The notes under the pieces are model-generated. The model was not told the DNA's origin and did no database searches. It worked only from the letters and a program-made list of their open reading frames with translations. Below, in pieces: positions 35 to 35,918 of a DNA stretch of 36,643 nucleotides (position 1 is the first letter of the stretch; every line of letters starts with the position of its first letter). The DNA is from a virus (taxonomy: Duplodnaviria > Caudoviricetes): the IMG/VR virus record IMGVR_UViG_3300011337_000672, positions 1-36,643 of that record. One strand, given 5' to 3'. Made by a program: the position numbers and the translations under genes.

Positions 35-205
35 TTAACCTGAACCGTCACCGTCACCGTAACCGGAACCGTAACCGTCACCGTAACCGTCACCGTAACC
101 GGAACCGTCACCGTAACCGTAACCGTAACCGTCACCGTAACCGTCACCGGAACCGTAACCGGAACCGTCACCGTAACTTTCATTTATATTGTTTACATTT
201 TCCAT
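35..205 (-). CDS. 56-aa Gly-X repeat peptide (MENVNNINESYGDGSGYGSGDGYG...), not in the ORF track
   Basis: ATG at 205 overlaps the end of the upstream gene, TAA at 35-37; GGT codons alternate with TAC/GAC/TCC. Confidence 0.75.
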   Translation of the reverse strand: MENVNNINESYGDGSGYGSGDGYGDGYGYGYGDGSGYGDGYGDGYGSGYGDGDGSG

Positions 206-531
206 TCTTTTACGCTTTCAATAGATTTTTTAGCTTTTTCAGTAACGTCTAAAATTTCAATTGCTTGTAATAATTCAACCCTATCAACAGGCGCAGGAAA
301 CTTACATTCACTAGGTAAAGAGGTCCCATCTGTTGCTAATTGACTAAGAGATGCGGCTCCTTTCCAATACCATATTCTGCGAGCATTCCTTAAAACAACT
401 TCTTGTCCATTTCTTGATTCTAGATATCCTGCAAAAACGCCAGCAGAATAGGTTCTACATATTACATATTTTAAAGAATCTGCTTTTTGTTTCTTTACAT
501 ACTCTTCGCCATTAATCGTTATTGTTTCCAT
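193..531 (-). CDS. DUF6948-like small phage protein
   Basis: YVICRTYSAGVFAGYL...ARRIWYWKGAASLSQLA motif; start moved to the ATG at 531 behind SD AAAAGGAG. Confidence 0.7.
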   Translation of the reverse strand: METITINGEEYVKKQKADSLKYVICRTYSAGVFAGYLESRNGQEVVLRNARRIWYWKGAASLSQLATDGTSLPSECKFPAPVDRVELLQAIEILDVTEKAKKSIESVKEWKM

Positions 532-703
532 TTTTAGCTCTCCTTTTAATATTCGTACTCTTTGGCGCATTCACACCAATTAATACACGTTTTTTATTGT
601 TATGATGATTAGTCTCAAGGAAAGTGATTTTCGCTGGTCCGTCTACTTCGACGGTTTCGCCTTCTCTTACTGTAAGGACTAAGTTACCTTGTTTGGTTGT
701 CAT
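512..703 (-). CDS. csrA: CsrA/RsmA-like RNA-binding translational regulator
   Basis: LVLTVREGETVEV...VLIGVNAPKSTNIKR aligns by eye with CsrA MLILTRRVGETLMI...VRIGVNAPKEVSVHR; 63 aa. Confidence 0.75.
   Translation of the reverse strand: MTTKQGNLVLTVREGETVEVDGPAKITFLETNHHNNKKRVLIGVNAPKSTNIKRRAKNGNNND
533..563. repeat. Copy 2 of the 31-bp direct repeat (3' end of the csrA-like gene and RBS of the DUF6948-like gene)
   Basis: 29/31 identity with 1-31. Confidence 0.85.
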
Positions 704-909
704 TCTATTTTTCCATTATTATCTAAAGCATCATCAATAAACTCTAATAGTTTACTTGCATTATTATTTTCCATTAATATTGCTGGCTTAATATTTCCTA
801 AAATAGGGATTGGCGTTTTTAACCACTCAACAATTTTCTTATAATCATTGAAATAGCAGTGAAGACCAATAATTATTTCTACGTTTGTTTCGTTAAGTTC
901 GATTTTCAT
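700..909 (-). CDS. Xre/MbcA/ParS-type antitoxin C-terminal (DUF2384-like) domain protein
   Basis: EWLKTPIPILGNIKPAILM resembles the WLxxPxxxLGGxxPxxLL signature; start at the ATG just after the upstream stop. Confidence 0.55.
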   Translation of the reverse strand: MKIELNETNVEIIIGLHCYFNDYKKIVEWLKTPIPILGNIKPAILMENNNASKLLEFIDDALDNNGKIE

Positions 910-910
910 T

Positions 911-1180
911 TCAGTAGTATTCCTTTTTTTCAAAGTAAGATTCTAATCTATTTAATTCAGACAAGAATTTTTCCGTTTCTAATGCCATGAAATGTTCAAA
1001 AATAATTTCTGAAACTTCTTTTTTGTTTTTATCTGGTTTTAAATAATTAAGACCTCGCCACTTTATATCATCATCAAGTTTATATTTATTAATAAGAGCA
1101 TTAAATTCTTTATGAAAGTTATCTTCTGTTATTCTTGCTTTTTTAGTTATTTGTGTTTGTAAAACATTGTTTAGGTTCAT
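911..1180 (-). CDS. Hypothetical protein
   Basis: ATGA overlap with the upstream gene at 1177-1180; operon context. Confidence 0.65.
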   Translation of the reverse strand: MNLNNVLQTQITKKARITEDNFHKEFNALINKYKLDDDIKWRGLNYLKPDKNKKEVSEIIFEHFMALETEKFLSELNRLESYFEKKEYY

Positions 1181-1953
1181 TTCAAAACCTCTAATTTTCT
1201 GCATCTAACTTTTGTTAAATTATTTATGTAAATATTTATATCAGATTTAAAAACACGACATTTTAAAATCTTTCCATTATGATAAGATAACGCATCTCCA
1301 ATGGTTGGACTTAAGTGAAGACCATTTCCACATTCTATTGAATCATCATCAATCCAATCAGGGCACTCTACTATTCCTTCATATTTAATTTTATTTGTTT
1401 GAAAGTCACATAAGGTATCTCTTCTTACTGATTTATATAATATTATTGAGTCATCACAAAACTTTTGGCATCGATCAAAGAACCTTTCTTTATCATAAAT
1501 AATTTCACTTGGAGTTTCTACAACTGTCGCTGTCGTATGTTTTAATTCAACTATTGGTTTAAATCCTCGAAAAGAAGCAATGGAATAATCTAATAATTTT
1601 TTAATAGTTACAGACGATAATAATACTGCGATCATTGAAAAATCATTTGCCTCAACGCTGGAGTTTCCACAAGCCAAAACGCTGGAGTTTCCACAAGCCA
1701 AAACGCTGGAGTTTCCACAAGCCACAACGCTGGAGTTTTCCCAAGCCTCAACGCTGGAGTTTCCCCTAGCCACAACGCTGGAGTTTCCCCTAGCCACAAC
1801 GCTGGAGTTTCCACAAGCCTCAACGCTGGAGTTTTCCCTATTTAATCTAATAAATATTAATTCAGTCGATCTAATTTCAATTCGCGTATATTCGTCAAAC
1901 GAATGTGGTAGAGCATCTAGTTGTGCTTGCGTATTAATTATAATTATATTCAT
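1177..1953 (-). CDS. Octapeptide-repeat (NSSVxAxG) protein with a C-terminal ECGNGLH domain (DUF7666-like)
   Basis: Eight 8-aa repeats suggest a beta-solenoid; C-terminal LYKSV...ECGNGLHLSP...KVRCRKLEV is typical of phage early repeat proteins. Confidence 0.7.
   Translation of the reverse strand: MNIIIINTQAQLDALPHSFDEYTRIEIRSTELIFIRLNRENSSVEACGNSSVVARGNSSVVARGNSSVEAWENSSVVACGNSSVLACGNSSVLACGNSSVEANDFSMIAVLLSSVTIKKLLDYSIASFRGFKPIVELKHTTATVVETPSEIIYDKERFFDRCQKFCDDSIILYKSVRRDTLCDFQTNKIKYEGIVECPDWIDDDSIECGNGLHLSPTIGDALSYHNGKILKCRVFKSDINIYINNLTKVRCRKLEVLK
1649..1840. repeat. Tandem 24-bp coding repeat, 8 copies
   Basis: Invariant core aacgctggagttt at 1654, 1678, 1702, 1726, 1750, 1774, 1798, 1822. 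Confidence 0.95.
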
Positions 1954-2237
1954 TTCAATAACCTCACTGACTTACTCTCTTTATATTTAACCTCATGACC
2001 TTTGATGATTGAAGCAATGGAAAAGGACATTCCATTTTCTTCATACTGCAAATAAATATTATCTATTTCTTTTTGAAGTTCATTCTCGTTGCTTGCTGAG
2101 ATAATACAATCAAACTGAGAGTCACTAGCTACAATGGTAGCAAATAGCTTTGCTCTTTCGCGTTTTGGTTTGTAATCAGCATCAACTGTTGTGAAATCTT
2201 CTGATTCTTTTACTGTCATTTCTTTTTCCATTTTCAT
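1950..2237 (-). CDS. Hypothetical protein
   Basis: SD AAGGAG upstream; ATGA overlap with the next gene. Confidence 0.7.
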   Translation of the reverse strand: MKMEKEMTVKESEDFTTVDADYKPKRERAKLFATIVASDSQFDCIISASNENELQKEIDNIYLQYEENGMSFSIASIIKGHEVKYKESKSVRLLK

Positions 2238-2263
2238 TCTCCTTGTTAATTATTTTTACAATA

Positions 2264-3142
2264 TCATTTCAAACTCTCTAAGTATTTATTAGCAAGATCT
2301 AGAAACTCATCAAATAAAGTAACGCTTGAGCCTTTTGATAGTTGCCATGACTTTATGGCTTTAATTAAAGTCTCTGTGTCTTTTTGTCCTAATTGTTCAA
2401 AGCTCATTCCTGATTTAAAAGATCCGAAATTAAATTTAAGACGATATGTTTTCCAGTCTCCAAAATCTTTATGTTCAATTGCATGATTTACGATTGGTTT
2501 TTCAATAGGTTGCTCCTGCACAGGTTTAATATTTGTGCCTGGGACAGCATCTCTGCTTATCTGTTTTTCCTGTGCAGGAGTAATAGTTTTAATTTCATTT
2601 TCAGCTTGTTCCATTTCCTCTGACGAATAAATACCACTAAGATCTTGAGGGAATGCTTTTCTCAAAGCCAAACATTCAGCAACTTTTGCAATCATTAACT
2701 CTGGCATTTTGACCCAAAAAGAAGTTAAATCTCCGTTCTTTTTTCTCGCTGCATAACTATTAAACTTTGCAACGGCCCATAGAGGTTCTTTGAAATCCGA
2801 TCTTAGGACAGCAACTTTTGCAGCAATAGGAGGTTTTGAATCAATCCATACGTCTTTCCAATTACCATCTTCACCACACCAGAAAGGTCCGAGTTGCCCA
2901 GCATATTTTTCTGATCTATTAGCTATAACTCGAAACCCATCTACCCCTGTTTGAAAAGACATTATTTCACGGCCTAGATTAGAGTCCCATCTTTTTACAG
3001 CCCAACATTGTTTGGAAAAAGGGTCTAATCCTGTTCTATTTGCTGTATGAATAAACAATTGGAGTTCTGAGTCTGTAGCTCCTTTGCATATCTGATCTTT
3101 TAATAATTGTATTTTATCATTTGCAATAACTAGATCACTCAT
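2264..3142 (-). CDS. bet: Phage recombination protein Bet (RecT/Red-beta-type single-strand annealing protein)
   Basis: KGATDSELQLF...GLDPFSKQ...GVDGFRVIA...MPELMIAKVAECLALRKAFPQDLSGIYSSEEM. Confidence 0.92.
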   Translation of the reverse strand: MSDLVIANDKIQLLKDQICKGATDSELQLFIHTANRTGLDPFSKQCWAVKRWDSNLGREIMSFQTGVDGFRVIANRSEKYAGQLGPFWCGEDGNWKDVWIDSKPPIAAKVAVLRSDFKEPLWAVAKFNSYAARKKNGDLTSFWVKMPELMIAKVAECLALRKAFPQDLSGIYSSEEMEQAENEIKTITPAQEKQISRDAVPGTNIKPVQEQPIEKPIVNHAIEHKDFGDWKTYRLKFNFGSFKSGMSFEQLGQKDTETLIKAIKSWQLSKGSSVTLFDEFLDLANKYLESLK

Positions 3143-3690
3143 TTTTTAACCCCTATCTTTGGCTTAGCCACACCAATTTTTATTGAATTTCCTTGAATAA
3201 GACGACAACCAGGTATTTCTTTGCCTTCTTTTAATTCATTACTAATTTGCATTTTATTGATAGTTTCAGTGACACTGATTTTTCGATAATCCTCTGGTAC
3301 TAAAGCCTCATTCCAGACATCAACCTTTGGTGGATTTTTACGCAATGTAATTGATTTTAAGTCTCCCGATAGGCTTGTAATGTTATTTTCAGATAGGGCC
3401 AGCTCTAGATTAGAGTTAAGTTTTTTCTCTACCTTGCTTAAACCGTCTAGGATGCCGCCTAGAGCGTTTATTTGTTGGTTGTAGTATTCGCGAAGGGCAT
3501 CGATTCTCTCAAGCGCCATCGCTGTAATATCTACGCTTAATTCTAATTCTTTGAGGTTATAGTTACTATAGCTGATTATTTCTTCTATTTCTTTGGTGAT
3601 CTCACCGCCTGAGTCGATAAGACGTTTTTCAATCTCATCGGCGAAAAACATAGAATCAGATATTATAGCTTTTAAATTGGATGTATCCAT
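3139..3690 (-). CDS. Siphovirus Gp157 family protein
   Basis: Coiled-coil N-terminus, then LRKNPPKVDVWNEALVPEDY...LKEGKEIPGCRL; adjacent to bet. Confidence 0.85.
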   Translation of the reverse strand: MDTSNLKAIISDSMFFADEIEKRLIDSGGEITKEIEEIISYSNYNLKELELSVDITAMALERIDALREYYNQQINALGGILDGLSKVEKKLNSNLELALSENNITSLSGDLKSITLRKNPPKVDVWNEALVPEDYRKISVTETINKMQISNELKEGKEIPGCRLIQGNSIKIGVAKPKIGVKK

Positions 3691-6298: not shown

Positions 6299-7039
6299 AT
6301 GAAAATAGGAATCATAGGCGTGGGAGTCGTTGGTGGTGCTCTTGTTAAATGGATCATATCAAATACTAAACATTCCATTGCTCGTTGGGATCCATTTATA
6401 GGATTCAATGAAAGTCTTGTTGGTTGTGATGCTATTTTTATATGCATTCCTGTTAAGCCATCAGAAAATGGACAAGACATTTCAGAACTAGAATCTACCG
6501 TTAAATTCGCAAAAGATTTTACATCTAATGTATTCATTAGATCAACAGTCCTTCCAGGAACAAACGATAAACTAGGAACTATTTCTTGTCCTGAATTTTT
6601 AACTGCTCGAATAGCTGATCAAGAAATGCAAAGACTTCCAATACTCGTTGGTGAATGTAATTCTGATTTAATCTTTAATATATTTCCAAATAAAGGAATT
6701 ACAATAGTTAATAACAAAGCAGCCGAGCTTGCTAAATTCGCTCATAACTGCTTTGGTGCTATGAAGGTCACTTATTTCAATATGATTTACAATTTAGCCC
6801 AAGATTTAGATGTTGATTATGAACAAGTGTTAAATGGCGTTTTAATTTCAGGATTTATAAACGAATTTCACACACAAGTTCCAGGACCAGACGGAAGTCT
6901 AGGTTACGGAGGAGCTTGTTTCCCTGAGAATATGGAAGCCTTTAATAATTATTTAGAAAAAAAAGAATATTATTTAAATTCTAACTTTATAGGGTTAGTA
7001 GAAGAATTAAACGAAAGACATAGAGAATTAAATAAATGA
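6299..7039 (+). CDS. UDP-glucose/GDP-mannose dehydrogenase family protein, short form
   Basis: GVGVVG Rossmann motif, RSTVLPG, CPEFL, AELAKFAHN, catalytic GYGGACFP. Confidence 0.88.
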   Translation: MKIGIIGVGVVGGALVKWIISNTKHSIARWDPFIGFNESLVGCDAIFICIPVKPSENGQDISELESTVKFAKDFTSNVFIRSTVLPGTNDKLGTISCPEFLTARIADQEMQRLPILVGECNSDLIFNIFPNKGITIVNNKAAELAKFAHNCFGAMKVTYFNMIYNLAQDLDVDYEQVLNGVLISGFINEFHTQVPGPDGSLGYGGACFPENMEAFNNYLEKKEYYLNSNFIGLVEELNERHRELNK

Positions 7040-7470
7040 GCAATAGGATAAAAGACAAAGATGGAAAATATAAAAGAATTAGAAAAGAATGGAGTATTGA
7101 AAATTTTAACGATGGATATGTAGATAATAAAGGAAGATTTAGAGTTTATAAACCATCTCATAAAAGAGCTTATAAAGGTGGGTATATATTAAGATCAATA
7201 GTTGCATATGAAGCATATAATAATATTGAAGTAGAAAAATTTATGGATATTCATCATAAAGATCATAATAAATTAAATGATTCAAAAGACAACCTTGAAT
7301 TAATTGAGCATAGTAAGCATACAATATTACATAAAACAAAACCTGAATTATTAATTAAAAAAATATGCAAAGGATGTAATATTACTTTTAAAATATTACC
7401 ATATAGAGAAAGAGCAGGAAGAGGAATTTATTGTTCATCTACATGTTATGAACAAAGAGGAATAAAATGA
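7036..7470 (+). CDS. HNH homing endonuclease with C-terminal Zn finger
   Basis: DIHHKDHNKLNDSKDNLEL...HTILH; CKGCNITF...YCSSTC. Confidence 0.85.
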   Translation: MSNRIKDKDGKYKRIRKEWSIENFNDGYVDNKGRFRVYKPSHKRAYKGGYILRSIVAYEAYNNIEVEKFMDIHHKDHNKLNDSKDNLELIEHSKHTILHKTKPELLIKKICKGCNITFKILPYRERAGRGIYCSSTCYEQRGIK

Positions 7471-8408
7471 AGGTTCTTATTTCAGGTTGTTTTGGATTTA
7501 TTGCTTCTAATCTTATTCCATTTCTTCTAAATAAAGGAAATATAGAAGTCATAGGAATAGACAACTTGCTTAATCCATCAATTGATCCAAGCTCTAGAAT
7601 TAAATCAAATTGTAATCCAGGATCTTGGGAAAGGTTTAAATTTTGGAATGCTGATATTAGAGACTTACAAAATATTTACTCAATTCTTATTAATGAAAAA
7701 CCTGATTATGTAATTCACTTAGCAGCTCTTGGTTCTGTTCCAAGGTCTTGGGATCAACCAGGAGTTGTCACAGATATTAATGAGCGTGGATTTATTAATA
7801 TGCTCCAAGCCTCAACAGCAACTAAGGTAAAGAGATTCGTCTTTGCATCTTCTAGCTCAGTCTATGGACCTACAGATAAGAATATTAAATGGGAAGGATC
7901 ACAATTATTCCCCGCAAGTCCATATGCTTTAACTAAAGTTAATAATGAACGATTCTGTGATCTATGGTGTGGAAATATGGGAATGGAGTGGATGGCTTTG
8001 AGGTTCTTTAATGTTTATGGACCAGGGCAAAGATTTGATTCTAACTACTCAGCAGTGATCCCTAAGTTTATTAAAGAAGAAACAATAAATATAAATGGTG
8101 ATGGTTTAACAATTAGAGATTTCACTTACGTCAGTGATGTTTGTTATTATTTATTTCAAAGTCTTATATCTAAAAAGCATAGTCTCGCTGTAAATATTGG
8201 TTCAGGCTATGGGACAAATTTAAATAAACTCGCTGAGATTATATCTGAAAGATTTAAAAAAGAAAAAGTCTATAAAGATCCTCGTCCTAATGATGCAAAA
8301 ATATCAATCGCAGATACCGCAAGACTATTTGAAACATTAGGGGAAATTAAAATGACATCTATTGAGCAAGGTCTATCTAAAACTATGTACTATTATGATT
8401 CTCTATGA
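7467..8408 (+). CDS. NAD-dependent nucleotide-sugar epimerase/dehydratase (WbpP-like extended SDR)
   Basis: SGCFGFIAS, HLAALGSVPRS, ASSSSVYG, SPYALTK (YxxxK), FNVYGP...YSAVIPKF. Confidence 0.9.
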   Translation: MKVLISGCFGFIASNLIPFLLNKGNIEVIGIDNLLNPSIDPSSRIKSNCNPGSWERFKFWNADIRDLQNIYSILINEKPDYVIHLAALGSVPRSWDQPGVVTDINERGFINMLQASTATKVKRFVFASSSSVYGPTDKNIKWEGSQLFPASPYALTKVNNERFCDLWCGNMGMEWMALRFFNVYGPGQRFDSNYSAVIPKFIKEETININGDGLTIRDFTYVSDVCYYLFQSLISKKHSLAVNIGSGYGTNLNKLAEIISERFKKEKVYKDPRPNDAKISIADTARLFETLGEIKMTSIEQGLSKTMYYYDSL

Positions 8409-8959: not shown

Positions 8960-10456
8960 ATGAATGATAAAATAAAAAAAATATTAGCAAATAAATCCTG
9001 GCGTTTAAAAAATCTCTACAAAATAGTTGATAAACACGGAAAAAAAGTAAACTTCACGCCTAACTCAGTTCAAAAATTAATTAATATAGAAACTGCAAAC
9101 AGAAAAATAATTCTTAAAGCCCGTCAATTCGGAGTATCTACAAATGAACTTATTAAGATGCTCGACTTCGTTTGTTTTAGAAGAAACATGACTGCTTGTA
9201 TAATAGCCCATGAGAATGATGCTATTGCAAAGTTATTTCGAATTGTTCGCCACGCCTATGAAAATATGCCTGATAGTATTAAGCCAGAGCCATCTAAGGG
9301 AGGTGGTTCAATATATGAGCTATATTTCCCTAAAATTAATTCAAGGATATATTGTGATCTAGAGTCTCGCGGTAATACTAACCAATGGCTTCACGTATCA
9401 GAAGCAGCCTTCATGAAAGACTCGTCTAAACTTAAATCTACTCTTCAATCGGTTCCGTTGGGTGAAGGAATAGTAACAATAGAGACGACACCGAACGGTT
9501 TAGGAAATTATTTCTATGATCTTTGGAATGATAAAGATTCAACTTATAAAAATCTTTTTTATCCATGGTATGTATTTCCATCATATAGATTAAAAACAAA
9601 TGAAAAATTAATTCTTACAGAAGAAGAAGTTATTCTAAAAGAAAAGGCCAAAAGGCTATTTAATGTAGACATAGACAATGAACAAATTGCATTTAGACGT
9701 TTTAAAAAATCAGAATTAAAACCATCAAGTCACGACAAGACTAGAGTTACATTCGAACAAGAGTATCCAGAAGATGAAGAGACTTGTTTCTTAGCAAGTG
9801 GTCAGAGGTTTGTTTATCCAATGACAATTCTAGAACAAAGACAAAGAGCAAAGAAGCCAATACTAGAAAAGGACGGTTTTGTTATTTTTGAGAAACCTGA
9901 TAAAAATAAGATTTATGTCTGTGGTGCTGACGTTTCAGAAGGTATATCTAAAGACTTTTCTAGTGGAGTATTAATGGAACTTCGTACAAGAGAAGTCATT
10001 GCAACTATTCGGGGAAAATATAAACCAGAAGATTTCGCAGATAAACTTGCATATTTATGCATGCAGTATGCAGCACCAGGAAAGTCACCGCCAGAATTAG
10101 CAGTTGAAAGAAATAATCATGGTCATACTGTACTTTATCGTCTTGATGAACATTGTAAATACAGAAACATCTATCTTGATAAAGATGATGAGCGTCCAGG
10201 TTGGAAAACAACTGCAATCAGTAGACCGATGATGATCGATGAATTCATAGATGCTTTTGAAAATAAAATTATAAAAGTAAATGACGAAATAATATTAAAT
10301 GAAGTTCAAACTTTAGTTGATAACAATGGAAAAATTGAGGCCGCTTCTGGTAAAAACGATGATACCATCATAGCATGTTCAATAGCATTGCAATTATGTA
10401 AGAAATCAAGCATCATAGACTTGTACGAAGACATAGAATCAAAAATTATTCTCTAG
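8960..10456 (+). CDS. terL: Terminase large subunit
   Basis: Walker A ILKARQFGVST, Walker B LHVSEAAF, ETTPNG coupling motif, RNase H-like GADVSEG...DFS, NDDTIIA. Confidence 0.95.
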   Translation: MNDKIKKILANKSWRLKNLYKIVDKHGKKVNFTPNSVQKLINIETANRKIILKARQFGVSTNELIKMLDFVCFRRNMTACIIAHENDAIAKLFRIVRHAYENMPDSIKPEPSKGGGSIYELYFPKINSRIYCDLESRGNTNQWLHVSEAAFMKDSSKLKSTLQSVPLGEGIVTIETTPNGLGNYFYDLWNDKDSTYKNLFYPWYVFPSYRLKTNEKLILTEEEVILKEKAKRLFNVDIDNEQIAFRRFKKSELKPSSHDKTRVTFEQEYPEDEETCFLASGQRFVYPMTILEQRQRAKKPILEKDGFVIFEKPDKNKIYVCGADVSEGISKDFSSGVLMELRTREVIATIRGKYKPEDFADKLAYLCMQYAAPGKSPPELAVERNNHGHTVLYRLDEHCKYRNIYLDKDDERPGWKTTAISRPMMIDEFIDAFENKIIKVNDEIILNEVQTLVDNNGKIEAASGKNDDTIIACSIALQLCKKSSIIDLYEDIESKIIL

Positions 10457-10487: not shown

Positions 10488-13400
10488 ATGGCCGAAGATT
10501 TAAATGCTCCAAAGAGTTCTAATTCAGACAATTTAATATCTGAGGCTTATTTCGGTCTTGTCGAAGAGACTTATTTTAAATCACCTTTAGTAGAAAAATC
10601 ATATAAAGCACCATTTAACTCCGATGATCTTTGGCAAAAAACTGGTGATTATTCTATATATGAAGAAATGCTTCAAGATGATCAAGTCTCTATTTGCTCA
10701 AAACTTAAGAAAGATCTTATTCTAGGAAGTGGTTTTGATATTGTTCCAGATGGTGACGAAGATCAAGAAGACATAATTGAATTTCTTAATAAATCTTTTG
10801 GTCAAGAAATGGACTCAATATTCGTAAACAGATTAGAAGAAATGCTTCAATGCTATGACTTCGGTTTTTCTTTAACCGAGAAAATATTTAAAAAACTATC
10901 CAGTGGAATGATAACACTGAAAGAATTAAAAACACGTCATCCTAATTCATGGACATTGTTTCAAGATGATTTCGGTAATGTGATAAAATATGAGCAATCT
11001 ACTGTTAAAGGAAATATCGAAGTTCCTAAAAGTAAATTAATTCATATGATAGCTAATGAAAAGTTTCAAAATCCTTACGGAACCTCTGATCTTCGAGCTT
11101 GCTACAATGCCTATTTTGCTAAAAGACAAGTGATTAGATACTATGCAATATTTATGGAAAAATCTGCTTCCCCTATTCCTGTTGCAAAGTATGATAAGAA
11201 TGCGCCTCAATCTGCAGTCAATAAAATCTTTGATATCATAAAAAGATTTCAAACAAAAACGGCGATCGCCATACCTAAAGAAATAGAACTAGAATTCCTA
11301 GAGTCCAAAAGTGCAGGAGAGGCCTATTCAAAGGCAATCAATATCTTCAATATGTTTATAGGTCGAGCTCTATTTGTTCCTGATCTTTTAGGACTTACAG
11401 GTAGCGAAACTGGAGGAGGTTCATTTTCTCTAGGTAAAGAACAAATTAAAATTTTCTTTATGCATATTAATAGAAGACGATCTTATTTAGAATCAATCGT
11501 GCAAAAGAATTTTATCGAACCAATAGTTAAATACAATTTCGGTGAATTAGAATATTACCCTTGTTTTAAATTTAAACCTCTTGATGACATGGAAGCTGTA
11601 GAACTAGCTAAGGTTTGGCTTGATGCTGTTAAATCAAGAGTATTTAAACCATCAGAAGAAGAAGTAAATTACTTTAGATCACTTTGTAAGTTTCCTGAAG
11701 GAGAAGTTGATTTTCAACAACCAGCTTTAAATCCTTTACAAGCACAATCACAAACAGGATTAGATCAACAAAGTAAAACAAATACTCAGGAAATAGATAA
11801 CGAAGAAACTGATAAAGAAGTTGAAACAGAAGATAAAAAAGAATTTGGAAAAGTATATAATCTTCCTAAAGGTGATTACTATAAAAAAGTAGACTTTAAA
11901 GCTATTGAGAACAAACTTAATGATTATGATAAGAGTGTTATAAACGAGGCAAGGCCTGTTATTAATAAAATATACTCGGATATTTATGATCAGATAGCTA
12001 AGAAGAAAATCTTAGAGAAAAAGGACATAGAAAAAGCTGATACTATTCAAGTTAAATATCTAAAAGAACTAAAAACAATACTTAAGTCTAGCTTTATGGG
12101 AATATATAAAGATGGACAAGTACAAGCTCAAAGTGAATTAGATAAGTCTAATTTTACTCAACCAACAACCTCACAAGAGTTCTTAGATTTACTTGAACAA
12201 GAAACTTTCGCTTACATTGGTGATTGGCAATATGGAATTACTAAAGAAGTTAGACAACAATTAATAATTGCAATTAAAGATGGAAGACCACTTTCTTCTG
12301 TAATTGATATTTTAGATGACGAGGGTAAGAAATTAAGTGAGCAAAGTTTAGAAAGATACTCTCGAACCAAACACACAGAAGTCATGAATAGAGGACGTTT
12401 AGAATATTTTGATTCAACTGATATTGTAGCAGCTTATCAATACAGCGCTGTTCTTGATGATAGAACTTGTTTTTCTGGAGAAACAGAAGTAGTTATGTCT
12501 GATCTAAGTCTTAAACCAATTAACAAAATAAGACCTGGTGATTGGATTATAAGTGGAACAGGAAAACCAAGGCGAGTTAAAGCATGTAAGATCTCTATCG
12601 GAAATGAATGGAGACGAATTAACGTGGGCGAAAAGAAACAAGTATGCGCGACAATTAACCATCCTTTCTGGAAAATTCAGCAAGGAGGCTCTCGATGGAT
12701 GGAATGCAAAGACTTGTCGAAAAACGACTCAATTGGAAGAATTGAATTGCAAAAATTGCAAAAAATTATTTTTGAGAAACAAGAATTCGAGGAAACAAAA
12801 GTTTTGCAGTCAGAAATGTTATTTTCACAGGAAAAAAGCTGTGATGATCGACAGAGAATGCATACAATGCAAGAAAGTCTTTCAAGTTCACAAAAGTTGG
12901 TTGAATGCGAATCCGAAAGGAGCAAAATTTTGCAGCATAAAATGCCAACGACTAAAGAAGTCTCATGGATTGAACCCAGACGATTTAATAAAGAAATGTC
13001 TAACTTGCAACAAAGAATTCAAGATCAAGCCGAAAGAAGCTCTGACGAAAAACAGAATTCATTGCAGCAACGAATGCAGGAAAAGAAGACTGAAAAAAAT
13101 CTGTCCAACGTGCAATATGGAATTCGAAACGAAAAAAAGCAATCAATCGATACATTGCAGCCTAAGTTGTTATCGGAAATCAGAGATGGAAACTACTTTA
13201 GAAATAATGGCGAGGAAAGAATTATCTCTCCTGAATATTCCATTTCAACAGGAAGTAAAGATTGGGAGATTCTCAATAGACTTTGTGATAATGAACAAAA
13301 TAGCTATAGAGATGAACGGGAAATATTGGCATCAGAAAAGAGTCATTTCAGATCAGAGAAAAAAGAAAATGATAGAACAGAGCGGAATGAAGATGATAAC

Positions 13401-13796
13401 CATTTTAACAGATCATTGGACAGAGGATACGAGAATAGAATTATTAAGGAAACTTATAGTGGAAATATACCAACTCCAACAAAAGAAATAAATATAATTT
13501 CAATTGAAGATTATAAAATAGAAGATTTATGTTTTGATATTGAAATAGAAGATGATCATTCTTTCCTAGTAACAGACTTAGGAATAATTGTACATAATTC
13601 TGATATATGCCGTGGACTTCATGGAAAGATCTTTAAGCGAGGACAAGAAGTTGTCCCTCCACTTCACTTTAATTGCAGAAGTGTTTTAGTTCCAATTACT
13701 AAATATGAGGATTGGGAAGCTGATACTCACGTTGGTAAAACACCTATCACTGATTTTATAGATGAGAATGTCGGTAAAGGTTTTTCAATTAAATAA
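10488..13796 (+). CDS. Portal protein (DUF935/Mu gp29-like) fused to a MuF-like minor head domain, intein-containing (about 725 aa after splicing)
   Basis: Follows terL; YDFGFSLTEK, NPYGTSDL portal motifs; MuF motifs RTKHTEVMN, YSAVLDDRT|SDICRGLHG, PPLHFNCRS. Confidence 0.9.
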   Translation: MAEDLNAPKSSNSDNLISEAYFGLVEETYFKSPLVEKSYKAPFNSDDLWQKTGDYSIYEEMLQDDQVSICSKLKKDLILGSGFDIVPDGDEDQEDIIEFLNKSFGQEMDSIFVNRLEEMLQCYDFGFSLTEKIFKKLSSGMITLKELKTRHPNSWTLFQDDFGNVIKYEQSTVKGNIEVPKSKLIHMIANEKFQNPYGTSDLRACYNAYFAKRQVIRYYAIFMEKSASPIPVAKYDKNAPQSAVNKIFDIIKRFQTKTAIAIPKEIELEFLESKSAGEAYSKAINIFNMFIGRALFVPDLLGLTGSETGGGSFSLGKEQIKIFFMHINRRRSYLESIVQKNFIEPIVKYNFGELEYYPCFKFKPLDDMEAVELAKVWLDAVKSRVFKPSEEEVNYFRSLCKFPEGEVDFQQPALNPLQAQSQTGLDQQSKTNTQEIDNEETDKEVETEDKKEFGKVYNLPKGDYYKKVDFKAIENKLNDYDKSVINEARPVINKIYSDIYDQIAKKKILEKKDIEKADTIQVKYLKELKTILKSSFMGIYKDGQVQAQSELDKSNFTQPTTSQEFLDLLEQETFAYIGDWQYGITKEVRQQLIIAIKDGRPLSSVIDILDDEGKKLSEQSLERYSRTKHTEVMNRGRLEYFDSTDIVAAYQYSAVLDDRTCFSGETEVVMSDLSLKPINKIRPGDWIISGTGKPRRVKACKISIGNEWRRINVGEKKQVCATINHPFWKIQQGGSRWMECKDLSKNDSIGRIELQKLQKIIFEKQEFEETKVLQSEMLFSQEKSCDDRQRMHTMQESLSSSQKLVECESERSKILQHKMPTTKEVSWIEPRRFNKEMSNLQQRIQDQAERSSDEKQNSLQQRMQEKKTEKNLSNVQYGIRNEKKQSIDTLQPKLLSEIRDGNYFRNNGEERIISPEYSISTGSKDWEILNRLCDNEQNSYRDEREILASEKSHFRSEKKENDRTERNEDDNHFNRSLDRGYENRIIKETYSGNIPTPTKEINIISIEDYKIEDLCFDIEIEDDHSFLVTDLGIIVHNSDICRGLHGKIFKRGQEVVPPLHFNCRSVLVPITKYEDWEADTHVGKTPITDFIDENVGKGFSIK
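12695..12745 (+). CDS. Putative 16-aa leader peptide MDGMQRLVEKRLNWKN in the third frame inside the intein
   Basis: AAGGAGG at 12682-12688, 6-nt spacer, ATG; its TGA overlaps the nuclease TTG as TTGA. Confidence 0.5.
   Translation: MDGMQRLVEKRLNWKN
12742..13491 (+). CDS. Nested out-of-frame endonuclease: 4x CxxCxxxF...CSxxC Zn fingers + DUF559/Vsr-like nuclease domain, 249 aa
   Basis: +1 frame relative to the portal; CKNC/CIQC/CLTC/CPTC units; ETTLE...FQQEVKIGRFSIDF...IAIEMNGKYWH...DQRKKK; TTG start directly precedes the first finger (frame is open from 12553). Confidence 0.82.
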   Translation: MNCKNCKKLFLRNKNSRKQKFCSQKCYFHRKKAVMIDRECIQCKKVFQVHKSWLNANPKGAKFCSIKCQRLKKSHGLNPDDLIKKCLTCNKEFKIKPKEALTKNRIHCSNECRKRRLKKICPTCNMEFETKKSNQSIHCSLSCYRKSEMETTLEIMARKELSLLNIPFQQEVKIGRFSIDFVIMNKIAIEMNGKYWHQKRVISDQRKKKMIEQSGMKMITILTDHWTEDTRIELLRKLIVEIYQLQQKK

Positions 13797-24215: not shown

Positions 24216-24995
24216 ATGGATTTTCTTACTACGAATCTTATAAATACAACCACTCAAATTAGTTTAAATTCTAATACATCAACTGCATCAAATATCTTTA
24301 ATAGAGATCCTTTCTATCAATATTATAGTGATGGATTTAATAATGATTTAACAACATCTTCAATTACTATTACATTTTCTGATACTACATCAGTTTCTAG
24401 GATTGCTTTAATAGATACAAATGCAAAACAATTTAATTTATTTTATAATGGATCAACTGCGAATTCTATTACGCTAGATGGAAATGGTTCAACCTCAACA
24501 GCATCATGGGCAAGTAATACAGAATCAAATATTTACATGAGACTATCAAGTACTATTACTGTGTCTTCTATTACTCTAGATATTAAATCAACACAGACAG
24601 CAGATAATGAAAAAAGATTAGGAATATTTTATATAGGAGATAAATATTATACTTTAACTCAAATACCTTCAGCAAATAATTATAATCCTAGAATAAATCC
24701 AAAACAAGTCGTACATACTTTGTCAGATGGAGGAACTAGAATTCATAATATAAGAAAAAAGAAATCAATAGAAATTAATTTGGATTATATTAGCTCAAGT
24801 ATAAGATCTAATCTAGAAACAATTTATAATTTAACTGTTCCATTTCAATTCTGTCCTTTTGGGACAACAACTTCATGGGATGGATTCTTTTTTGAATGTG
24901 TTTGGACGGGTGGTTTTGATTTTTATGAATTTTCTGATAATGCTTCTTCATCTGGATTCTCAGGTAAAATAAACTTAAGGGAGACTCCATTTTGA
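24216..24995 (+). CDS. Putative distal tail protein
   Basis: First gene after TMP; ATG right after the TMP stop with GGGGTGG upstream. Confidence 0.65.
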   Translation: MDFLTTNLINTTTQISLNSNTSTASNIFNRDPFYQYYSDGFNNDLTTSSITITFSDTTSVSRIALIDTNAKQFNLFYNGSTANSITLDGNGSTSTASWASNTESNIYMRLSSTITVSSITLDIKSTQTADNEKRLGIFYIGDKYYTLTQIPSANNYNPRINPKQVVHTLSDGGTRIHNIRKKKSIEINLDYISSSIRSNLETIYNLTVPFQFCPFGTTTSWDGFFFECVWTGGFDFYEFSDNASSSGFSGKINLRETPF

Positions 24996-35671: not shown

Positions 35672-35918
35672 TTTGATTGGATGCTCTAACTTACCAGAGT
35701 TTCCTGCTGATTTTGTTTTTGTGGTCAATCCTGATACTCAAACATGCAGTAAACATGAGATTATTAAGAAAGATCCTGTCACCGTTGGAGACGGAATTGA
35801 TGTTCCTTGGGATGATTGCCCTCATGTATTTGGCTTTAAAGATTCTGACATTGGACCAGTAATGAATTGGATTAGGAAGGCTCAAGAGCTCTCTAAACAA
35901 AAGTGTAAGGATATGTGA
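35628..35918 (+). CDS. Lipoprotein, putative o-spanin
   Basis: MRFLKKSVIFLMASSLIG-C lipobox; Pro/Cys-containing mature part; adjacent to the endolysin. Confidence 0.6.
   Translation: MRFLKKSVIFLMASSLIGCSNLPEFPADFVFVVNPDTQTCSKHEIIKKDPVTVGDGIDVPWDDCPHVFGFKDSDIGPVMNWIRKAQELSKQKCKDM

Follow-up and report, generated by a model that had tools for sequence, protein, structure and literature searches.

An out-of-frame zinc-finger nuclease frame nested in a phage portal–MuF intein and candidate routes to its translation

The locus described here lies in a 36,643-nt stretch of viral DNA, which was analysed whole and is referred to as the window. In this window a gene that joins a portal protein to a MuF domain is interrupted by an intein, and inside the intein runs a second open frame shifted by +1. 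A preliminary description had placed a nested +1 nuclease inside a portal gene. Both are present: the frame is intact and encodes zinc fingers and an EDxHD-like domain, and the portal is fused to MuF and carries the intein. The main features are as follows.

10488..13796, plus strand: portal (Portal_Mu)–MuF fusion gene, 1102 aa with the intein and 725 aa without it
12468..13598, plus strand: intein of 377 aa in frame 0, with C1, TxxH at 62–65, a block F Asp, a terminal HN and Ser at +1
12553..13491, plus strand: nested +1 open frame, 312 aa from GTG 12553, with an N-terminal extension, four CxxC..CSxxC fingers and an EDxHD/Vsr-like nuclease
12748..13170, plus strand: four treble-clef-like zinc-finger repeats (C66–C206), with invariant Cys
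13201..13488, plus strand: EDxHD/Vsr-like catalytic domain (E217, D243, H260, D267), from profile and fold match to PDB 3R3P

The portal–MuF gene matches Pfam PF06074 (E 2.5e-48) and PF04233 (E 4.2e-9). The intein boundaries are directly supported by intein-free homologs, which are ∼725 aa long and read DDRT|S at the junction; excision of 12468–13598 from the window gene leaves 725 aa and the junction DDRT|SDICRG, the same as in the homologs. The pattern D-x-R/K-T without an insert was found in 93 of 119 homologs, with S (75), T (17) or Y (1) as the next residue. The insert gives a Pfam Intein_splicing match (E 2.1e-7, under the curated cut-off) and has the features of a class 1 intein, namely C1, TxxH in block B, Asp in block F (standard block names), a terminal HN, Ser/Thr/Cys at +1 and precise insertion relative to empty alleles. 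From these sequence features the 377-aa insert is likely a self-splicing intein, and splicing is predicted. Over the intact nuclease frame, frame 0 is a stop-free disordered linker, and selection is seen in the nuclease frame: in the nuclease region split codon boxes vary in 34/45 cases and the residue is altered in 4/45. Only eight codings of intein codons 70–95 preserve both overlapping proteins. A full HMMER search with the intein returned 94 proteins, many with the same stop-free linker.

The catalytic domain of the nested frame is most similar to the homing endonuclease I-Bth0305I (PDB 3R3P), both by family profile (E 2.1e-16) and by Foldseek, in which 3R3P is the top match with a probability of 1.00; both comparisons indicate a Vsr-like C-terminal fold. 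D243, H260 and D267 align in the family profile with D196, H213 and D222 of I-Bth0305I, and we infer that E217, which is invariant across the nuclease family, is the Glu of the EDxHD motif. Pfam found only MTES_1575 and DUF559 on this protein. Where EDxHD enzymes have a NUMOD-like N-terminal DNA-binding region, four Cys4 fingers are present; their matches to YacG/MYM are weak (E 0.04–0.11) and their AlphaFold pLDDT is about 80–94 per block. The nested nuclease resembles an EDxHD enzyme in its predicted action, and we do not claim strict family membership. In the AlphaFold model residues 1–41 of the 312-aa form have pLDDT <50, and the predicted first beta-strand (residues 61–65) begins at TTG 12733. 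The first Cys of the first finger is encoded at 12748, two codons after TTG 12742.

A wastewater contig (X12) differs from the window by 3 letters over 12452–13640, 1 of them listed within the intein, as against at least 40 differences in the 218 nt upstream of the intein (12233–12450). Empty, intein-free alleles were seen in runs X15, X16 and X18. A near-identical intein in a diverged host allele suggests that the element probably spread recently. The pattern is compatible with homing, although it does not end sharply on the 3′ side, and recombination of the ordinary kind would also be possible. Because near-identical inteins in diverged alleles fit recent homing, the nuclease is probably expressed; being intact and recently mobile, it requires a route of expression. 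On a 19,826-nt contig (P0219, as in X12) the allele that holds this same intein also carries, at a downstream MuF FN-C site, an apparent second intein N-half that ends in a stop and is likely a split intein.

The candidate starts of the nuclease and the signals around them, including Shine-Dalgarno (SD) sequences, are listed below; L003 and L018 are the closest relatives of the window element (33% and 32% identity over the intein).

12553..12555, plus strand: GTG, first start codon of the open +1 frame and a candidate start, with GGTGA 11 nt upstream, poorly spaced
12604..12606, plus strand: ATG in +1, second candidate upstream start, with no SD
12625..12744, plus strand: doubly constrained stretch, intein codons 53–92, with +1 residues invariant at 18/40 positions among the window, L003 and L018
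12659..12688, plus strand: predicted local hairpin (−10.6 kcal/mol) pairing CC-A-TCCTT (His-Pro-Phe codons) with AAGGAGG
12682..12688, plus strand: perfect SD AAGGAGG, in intein codons Q72-G73-G74
12695..12745, plus strand: third-frame 16-codon ORF MDGMQRLVEKRLNWKN*, the proposed leader
12733..12735, plus strand: TTG in +1, homolog of the start in relatives L079, L081 and L083, its SD lost where intein G-D became N-D
12742..12744, plus strand: TTG in +1, overlapped by the TGA of the proposed leader

It had been proposed that the third-frame ORF serves as a leader that delivers ribosomes to the nuclease by translational coupling, and the sequence bears out the arrangement. AAGGAGG is followed by a 6-nt spacer (CTCTCG) and by ATG 12695, which opens the 16-codon ORF; its TGA (12743–12745) lies over TTG 12742–12744, and all three forward frames are open across these 51 nt, the third from 12659. 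A 4-nt start/stop overlap recurs, as claimed, at other junctions of this phage, six in all (ATGA at 7036, 7467, 8405 and 30891, TTGA at 24992, GTGA at 35915), which speaks for the leader. So does the strength of its SD (−11.4 kcal/mol, spacing 6), the strongest near the element and the only SD-led entry reaching the +1 frame in the window element. As in a coupled leader, an SD-led short ORF has a stop overlapping a downstream start that lacks an SD of its own (−3.3 kcal/mol for TTG 12742 and −0.1 for TTG 12733). No +1 start in the window element is SD-led by a strict rule that 17 of 30 of the phage's own genes pass; under this rule the GGTGA before GTG 12553 is too distant, and a looser duplex gives −7.8 kcal/mol. 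The +1 frame of the window is interrupted by stops at codons 21 and 28, in the region used for initiation by L003 and L018; this favours the leader and leaves GTG 12553 or ATG 12604 as upstream starts. TTG 12742 is predicted to be paired (unpaired probability 0.01–0.02), again in keeping with the leader, as coupled starts often are paired.

These elements have to be set against what the intein codons produce unaided. The TTGA overlap, which for this reason counts against the leader, is automatic because any TTG followed by A yields TGA in the third frame; here it comes from ATT-GAA (I92-E93), while the SD comes from the Q-G-G codons and the ATG from R-W (CGA TGG). With the intein residues held fixed, codon resampling placed an SD and ATG at the leader position in 32% of cases; under host codon usage the exact 16-codon leader arose in 0.26%. 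Two nulls (600 resamplings) produced a strong-SD third-frame ORF ending in an NTGA overlap at rates of 6.2% and 6.7%, uncorrected for scan size, and at 10.5–11.5% when the SD cut-off was relaxed. The 6–7% figure leans towards a functional leader, but six further off-frame SD+ATG sites with ORFs of 1–17 codons occur in the 25,563 nt of genes scanned in the window. AAGGAGG itself occurs three times on the plus strand of the window and is absent from the minus strand. The leader arrangement is real and mildly unusual, and not far beyond chance. A control for chance leaders is position 9315 inside the terminase gene, where an out-of-frame ATG preceded by a predicted SD of −17 kcal/mol, a very strong value, opens a 15-codon ORF. 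Just upstream of the terminase, 6299–8408 holds a UDP-glucose/GDP-mannose dehydrogenase-like gene and an NAD-dependent epimerase.

Predicted RNA structure cuts against the leader as well, with the SD mostly paired (unpaired probability 0.19–0.41). The predicted hairpin would hide the SD, either silencing an accidental SD or gating a real one. We found no excess of RNA structure in this region of the window (z = 0.29), and neither a sigma-70-like promoter nor a terminator was found in 12400–12800. RNA run X20 contributed one 219-nt contig over 12452–12614, which says nothing about starts. A further argument against the leader is that the predicted first strand of the nuclease would be truncated if translation began at 12742.

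Fourteen distinct relatives for which DNA was available have a nuclease nested in +1 and a complete 5′ end; 12 are zinc-finger/EDxHD and 2 are, judging by their motif, GIY-YIG-like. This count leaves out L019 and L023 (5′ end missing), the mini-inteins L005/L006, L007 and L024, the duplicates L004, L010, L013, L031 and L032 with re-fetched copies, L061 (no intein), the in-frame or split forms L065–L067, L069, L070, L075 and L076, and free-standing nucleases. L031 is a Patescibacteria MAG contig in which L003 is also present. Other searches added little. Single-protein scans of viral contigs gave two unrelated loci with the nuclease and none with the intein; tblastn of the intein gave nothing in phages and only Hint domains in plasmids; 1/401 genomes was positive in a phylum search, an element already in the set; and a scan with a conserved DNA motif returned 12 stretches, 2 being the known L003/L004 element and 10 lacking an intein. 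The +1 protein read from 12553 has no record in the protein collection, an absence that is uninformative.

Conservation of the leader in homologous inteins had been named as a check on the proposal, and here the proposal fared poorly. Neither of the two closest relatives has the leader, which counts directly against it: L003 and L018 keep TTG-x-x-TTG-AAY-TGC, I92-E93 and the TGA, but have no AAGGAGG and no ATG at the Trp, and their third frame is stopped 11 codons earlier, at codon 81. Similar SD-led leaders in L009 and L050 (2 of the 14 relatives) speak for the leader, though each of these two carries a separate SD for the overlapped TTG. Leaders that have an SD and stop on a +1 start were counted in 3/12 elements, with 1.3 expected, and in 0/3 additional elements, figures that weigh against a family-wide role. 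In L011, L020 and L014 the conserved Trp supplies an ATG without an SD, and the frame it opens ends in NTGA; we count this as weak support because the pattern follows from GGA-TGG and xxT-GAx.

Direct SD-led +1 starts are found in 11/14 relatives (8/11 in a first set and 3/3 in a second), although the 8/12 elements with such starts are not far above the 5.7 expected by chance. In L003 and L018 the start is a GTG at intein codon 20 (AAGGA, 8 nt; AAGGAG, 7 nt), after which the +1 frame stays open. In L079, L081 and L083 an (A)AGGAG from the intein G-D codons (GGA GAC, codons 82–85) stands 5–6 nt before a +1 TTG start, and the +1 frame of L081 is open only from two codons before its TTG. The positional homolog of this start in the window is TTG 12733 and not TTG 12742.

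The collection also shows related layouts. At the same site in MuF, the inteins of L012 (1316–2566) and L015 (2522–3673) harbour a GIY-YIG-like +1 nuclease whose ATG is SD-led in both cases. In L065, L066, L067, L069, L070 and L075 a Vsr/EDxHD-like nuclease is in frame with the intein, and most of these end in MuF-like CxC extein motifs. L076 (583–3398; IMGVR_UViG_3300035138_000092) is a split MuF intein. Its N-half runs in frame into an EDxHD-like nuclease with four fingers and then stops, and the C-half and C-extein lie in a separate overlapping ORF in a different frame; this locus is possibly an intermediate between the nested and in-frame layouts. L007 (2522–3019), P0130 and P0143 are shortened inteins with an apparent remnant of the first zinc finger's frame, representing decay stages. 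L013 and L014 are near-identical, and in L013 the nested nuclease is broken within its last finger by a stop that L014 lacks. In L001 the antisense frame of an HNH-like gene (2686–3420, plus strand) is stop-free and contiguous with a large virion-like gene (124–3429, minus strand).

Each third base of an intein-frame codon is the second base of a +1 codon. In a comparison that rests on three close sequences (the window, L003 and L018, the codon table of L018 being padded from two other loci), the 18/40 invariant +1 residues in codons 53–92 compare with 4.6 ± 1.4 under the null, a value reached in 0/1500 trials, and third bases are invariant at 23/40 codons versus 15/108 in controls. The signal extends upstream of the SD: in codons 53–71, all of which precede it, +1 residues are invariant at 10/19 positions versus 2.3 ± 1.0 expected (0/1500) and third bases at 10/19 (Fisher p 4.6e-4 against the same controls). 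Codons 72–92 show 8/21 invariant +1 residues, codons 1–19 show 1/19 versus 0.8 expected, and codons 20–52 show no three-way constraint (5/33). Pairwise third-position identity among the three is 0.28–0.42 in the exteins, codons 1–55 and the C-terminal domain, 0.54 in the nuclease and 0.71–0.75 in codons 56–92, and first positions show no corresponding rise. In the L011/L020 pair, too, the +1 frame is conserved upstream of the first finger, with third bases the same at 20/27.

Composition points the same way. Codons 41–71 of the window have G/C third bases at 12/29 positions versus 4.4 expected (P 4.5e-4; reached by 2/210 host windows), and the third bases of codons 1–28 and 342–377 are host-like. 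This excess may partly reflect origin, because the nuclease wobble bases are G/C-rich too (65/212 versus 35.9). The +1 frame of the window is stop-free for 65 codons (P 0.028). Antisense coding was considered as a cause of the constraint and, by inspection, rejected, the in-phase antisense frame being stopped at TTA codons, for example at +1 Leu63. A comparison of protein with RNA constraint gave p 0.13, and an RNA element could explain part of the constraint in codons 53–92. The pattern suggests that a second reading frame is under selection inside the intein splicing domain. In a coupled leader the downstream constraint would start at the coupled start, but here it begins ∼39 codons upstream; under a leader with its nuclease start at codon 92, +1 constraint in codons 53–71 is not expected, which counts against the leader model.

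We tentatively favor, while keeping considerable doubt, the explanation that the 51-nt third-frame ORF is a by-product in a doubly coded stretch and that the nuclease starts upstream, at GTG 12553 or ATG 12604, with its first 40–60 residues overprinted on the splicing domain. The upstream start is not pinned to one position because codons 20–52 show no three-way constraint. Frame-0 ribosomes would make portal–MuF–intein, which would splice, and a small share of ribosomes would initiate directly in +1 at a weak start upstream of 12625, giving a nuclease whose N-terminal extension would share its DNA with intein block B. Empty MuF alleles would be cut by the nuclease at DDRT|S and would acquire the intein during repair (homing). 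Several results weigh against this reading: neither upstream candidate has a well-placed SD, the AlphaFold model is of low confidence over residues 1–41, SD-led direct starts in the relatives lie close to chance expectation, and the constraint and the G/C excess may in part have other causes. Initiation in frame at the GTG/ATG of intein codon 53, with ribosomes slipping into +1 soon afterwards, was also considered and set aside, as no slippery site in common was seen.

The chief alternative is possible though doubtful: AAGGAGG and ATG 12695 would recruit ribosomes, which would translate the 16 codons up to TGA 12743 and then reinitiate, either at TTG 12742 or at TTG 12733, 9 nt further back. 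The leader would then be a lineage-specific replacement of the relatives' upstream SD-GTG start, acting alone or beside an upstream start. Part of the original proposal stands, in that the leader is the only SD-led route into +1 in the window element. A start at TTG 12742 as the family mechanism does not, given the absence of the leader from the two closest relatives, the +1 constraint from ∼12625, which it leaves unexplained, and the position of the homologous start at TTG 12733. L079, L081 and L083 suggest that TTG 12733 was the ancestral start, so a working leader might deliver ribosomes to this codon and not to 12742. All results would fit a recent switch to the leader that followed replacement of the intein's first 40 codons by recombination. 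We have similar reservations about the fullest form of this alternative, a triple-coded 51-nt stretch with the splicing domain in frame 0, the nuclease N-terminus in +1 and, in +2, a leader that evolved after loss of the family's SD-led start and is gated by the His-Pro-Phe hairpin.

Recoding is unlikely. Here portal-frame ribosomes would shift +1 between codons 29 and 55 to give a portal–MuF–intein–nuclease fusion, or leader ribosomes would slip −1 at A-AAA-CGA (12721–12727). A shift would suit the 6/11 elements whose +1 frame is open from codon 29 or earlier, the onset of constraint near codon 53 where no start codon is shared, and the in-frame fusion of an intein N-half to the same kind of nuclease in L076. 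By inspection, however, no slippery sequence is common to the three closest elements, the A run is only 5 nt, and L003 and L018 have ordinary SD-GTG starts. Very unlikely is a model in which SD-poor initiation takes place directly at TTG 12733, an ancestral start lying where the N-terminal splicing domain ends, with the conserved upstream bases acting as an RNA-level initiation or structure element and not as protein: the SD-led TTG of L079, L081 (with its late-opening frame) and L083, the retention of this codon in the window, L003 and L018, the first strand predicted to begin there and the hairpins possible at HPFW..G in the same three elements agree with it, but the TTG has no SD, the window shows no excess folding, the consensus HPFW..G hairpin has no compensatory changes, and a rise in third-position but not first-position identity fits +1 coding better.

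Inteins with an out-of-frame nuclease are already known, and what is new here is a sense-strand +1 zinc-finger/EDxHD form that overlaps the splicing domain. The following comparisons extend to the accessible portions of the papers cited. Non-canonical actinobacteriophage inteins combine an intact intein with a nuclease in another frame (Gosselin, Arsenault and Gogarten, bioRxiv 10.1101/2025.01.02.630785). Like the present element they show signs of continued transfer, and their host proteins include 'minor capsid', among which there could be cases related to this element. Their VSR-like, possibly EDxHD, nucleases are antisense, whereas ours is sense and +1; their sense out-of-frame nuclease is endonuclease VII-like and in frame 3; and here, unlike there, the nuclease frame is constrained inside the splicing domain. 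The text consulted describes no mechanism by which translation of those nucleases would initiate. A cyanobacterial dnaX intein (Phillips et al., bioRxiv 10.64898/2026.09.14.751524) likewise has a sense out-of-frame nuclease under purifying selection inside the intein, but it is a LAGLIDADG enzyme in a cellular host gene, with putative SD motifs directly upstream of its start and no leader. I-Bth0305I (Taylor et al. 2011, PMC3239194), the best match in sequence and fold, shares the Vsr-like C-terminal domain; it is intron-encoded and its family has NUMOD-like N-termini, in contrast to four Cys4 fingers nested in an intein.

With regard to expression, homing endonucleases of T4-like phages (Edgell et al. 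2010, PMC2988022) offer RBS-hiding hairpins in I-TevI, segB and Aeh1 mobE, comparable to the predicted SD hairpin here. A stop/start overlap is suggested there to couple mobE to nrdA, a precedent in favor of the leader, but in that case the upstream ORF is a real gene, and the accessible text describes no dedicated third-frame leader in a doubly coded region. The hidden HNH nuclease of ShiLan in phage methylases (Arsenault et al. 2025, PMC11855218) is similarly actively homing and out of frame; it carries zinc fingers and has an RBS-less GTG start close to the insert's 5′ end. It differs in having no splicing domain, in being HNH and not EDxHD, and in its proposed leaderless initiation; the same paper states the translation of the hidden nuclease as an open question. 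In the literature searched, which took in few subscription papers, we found no report of a sense +1 zinc-finger/Vsr nuclease in a MuF intein, nor of a leader serving a nested nuclease.

Support for the leader alone is weak, and the significance of the finding rests mainly on the element and its family. The family offers several solutions to expressing the nuclease: some members draw an SD from the intein G-D codons, others have an SD-GTG at codon 20 or fuse the nuclease in frame, and a leader may be a further route. If the triple-coding leader is true, it would provide a defined route for expressing an out-of-frame intein nuclease by loading ribosomes inside the portal mRNA. The element makes the question of expression testable, within a 200-nt stretch and with four candidate starts.
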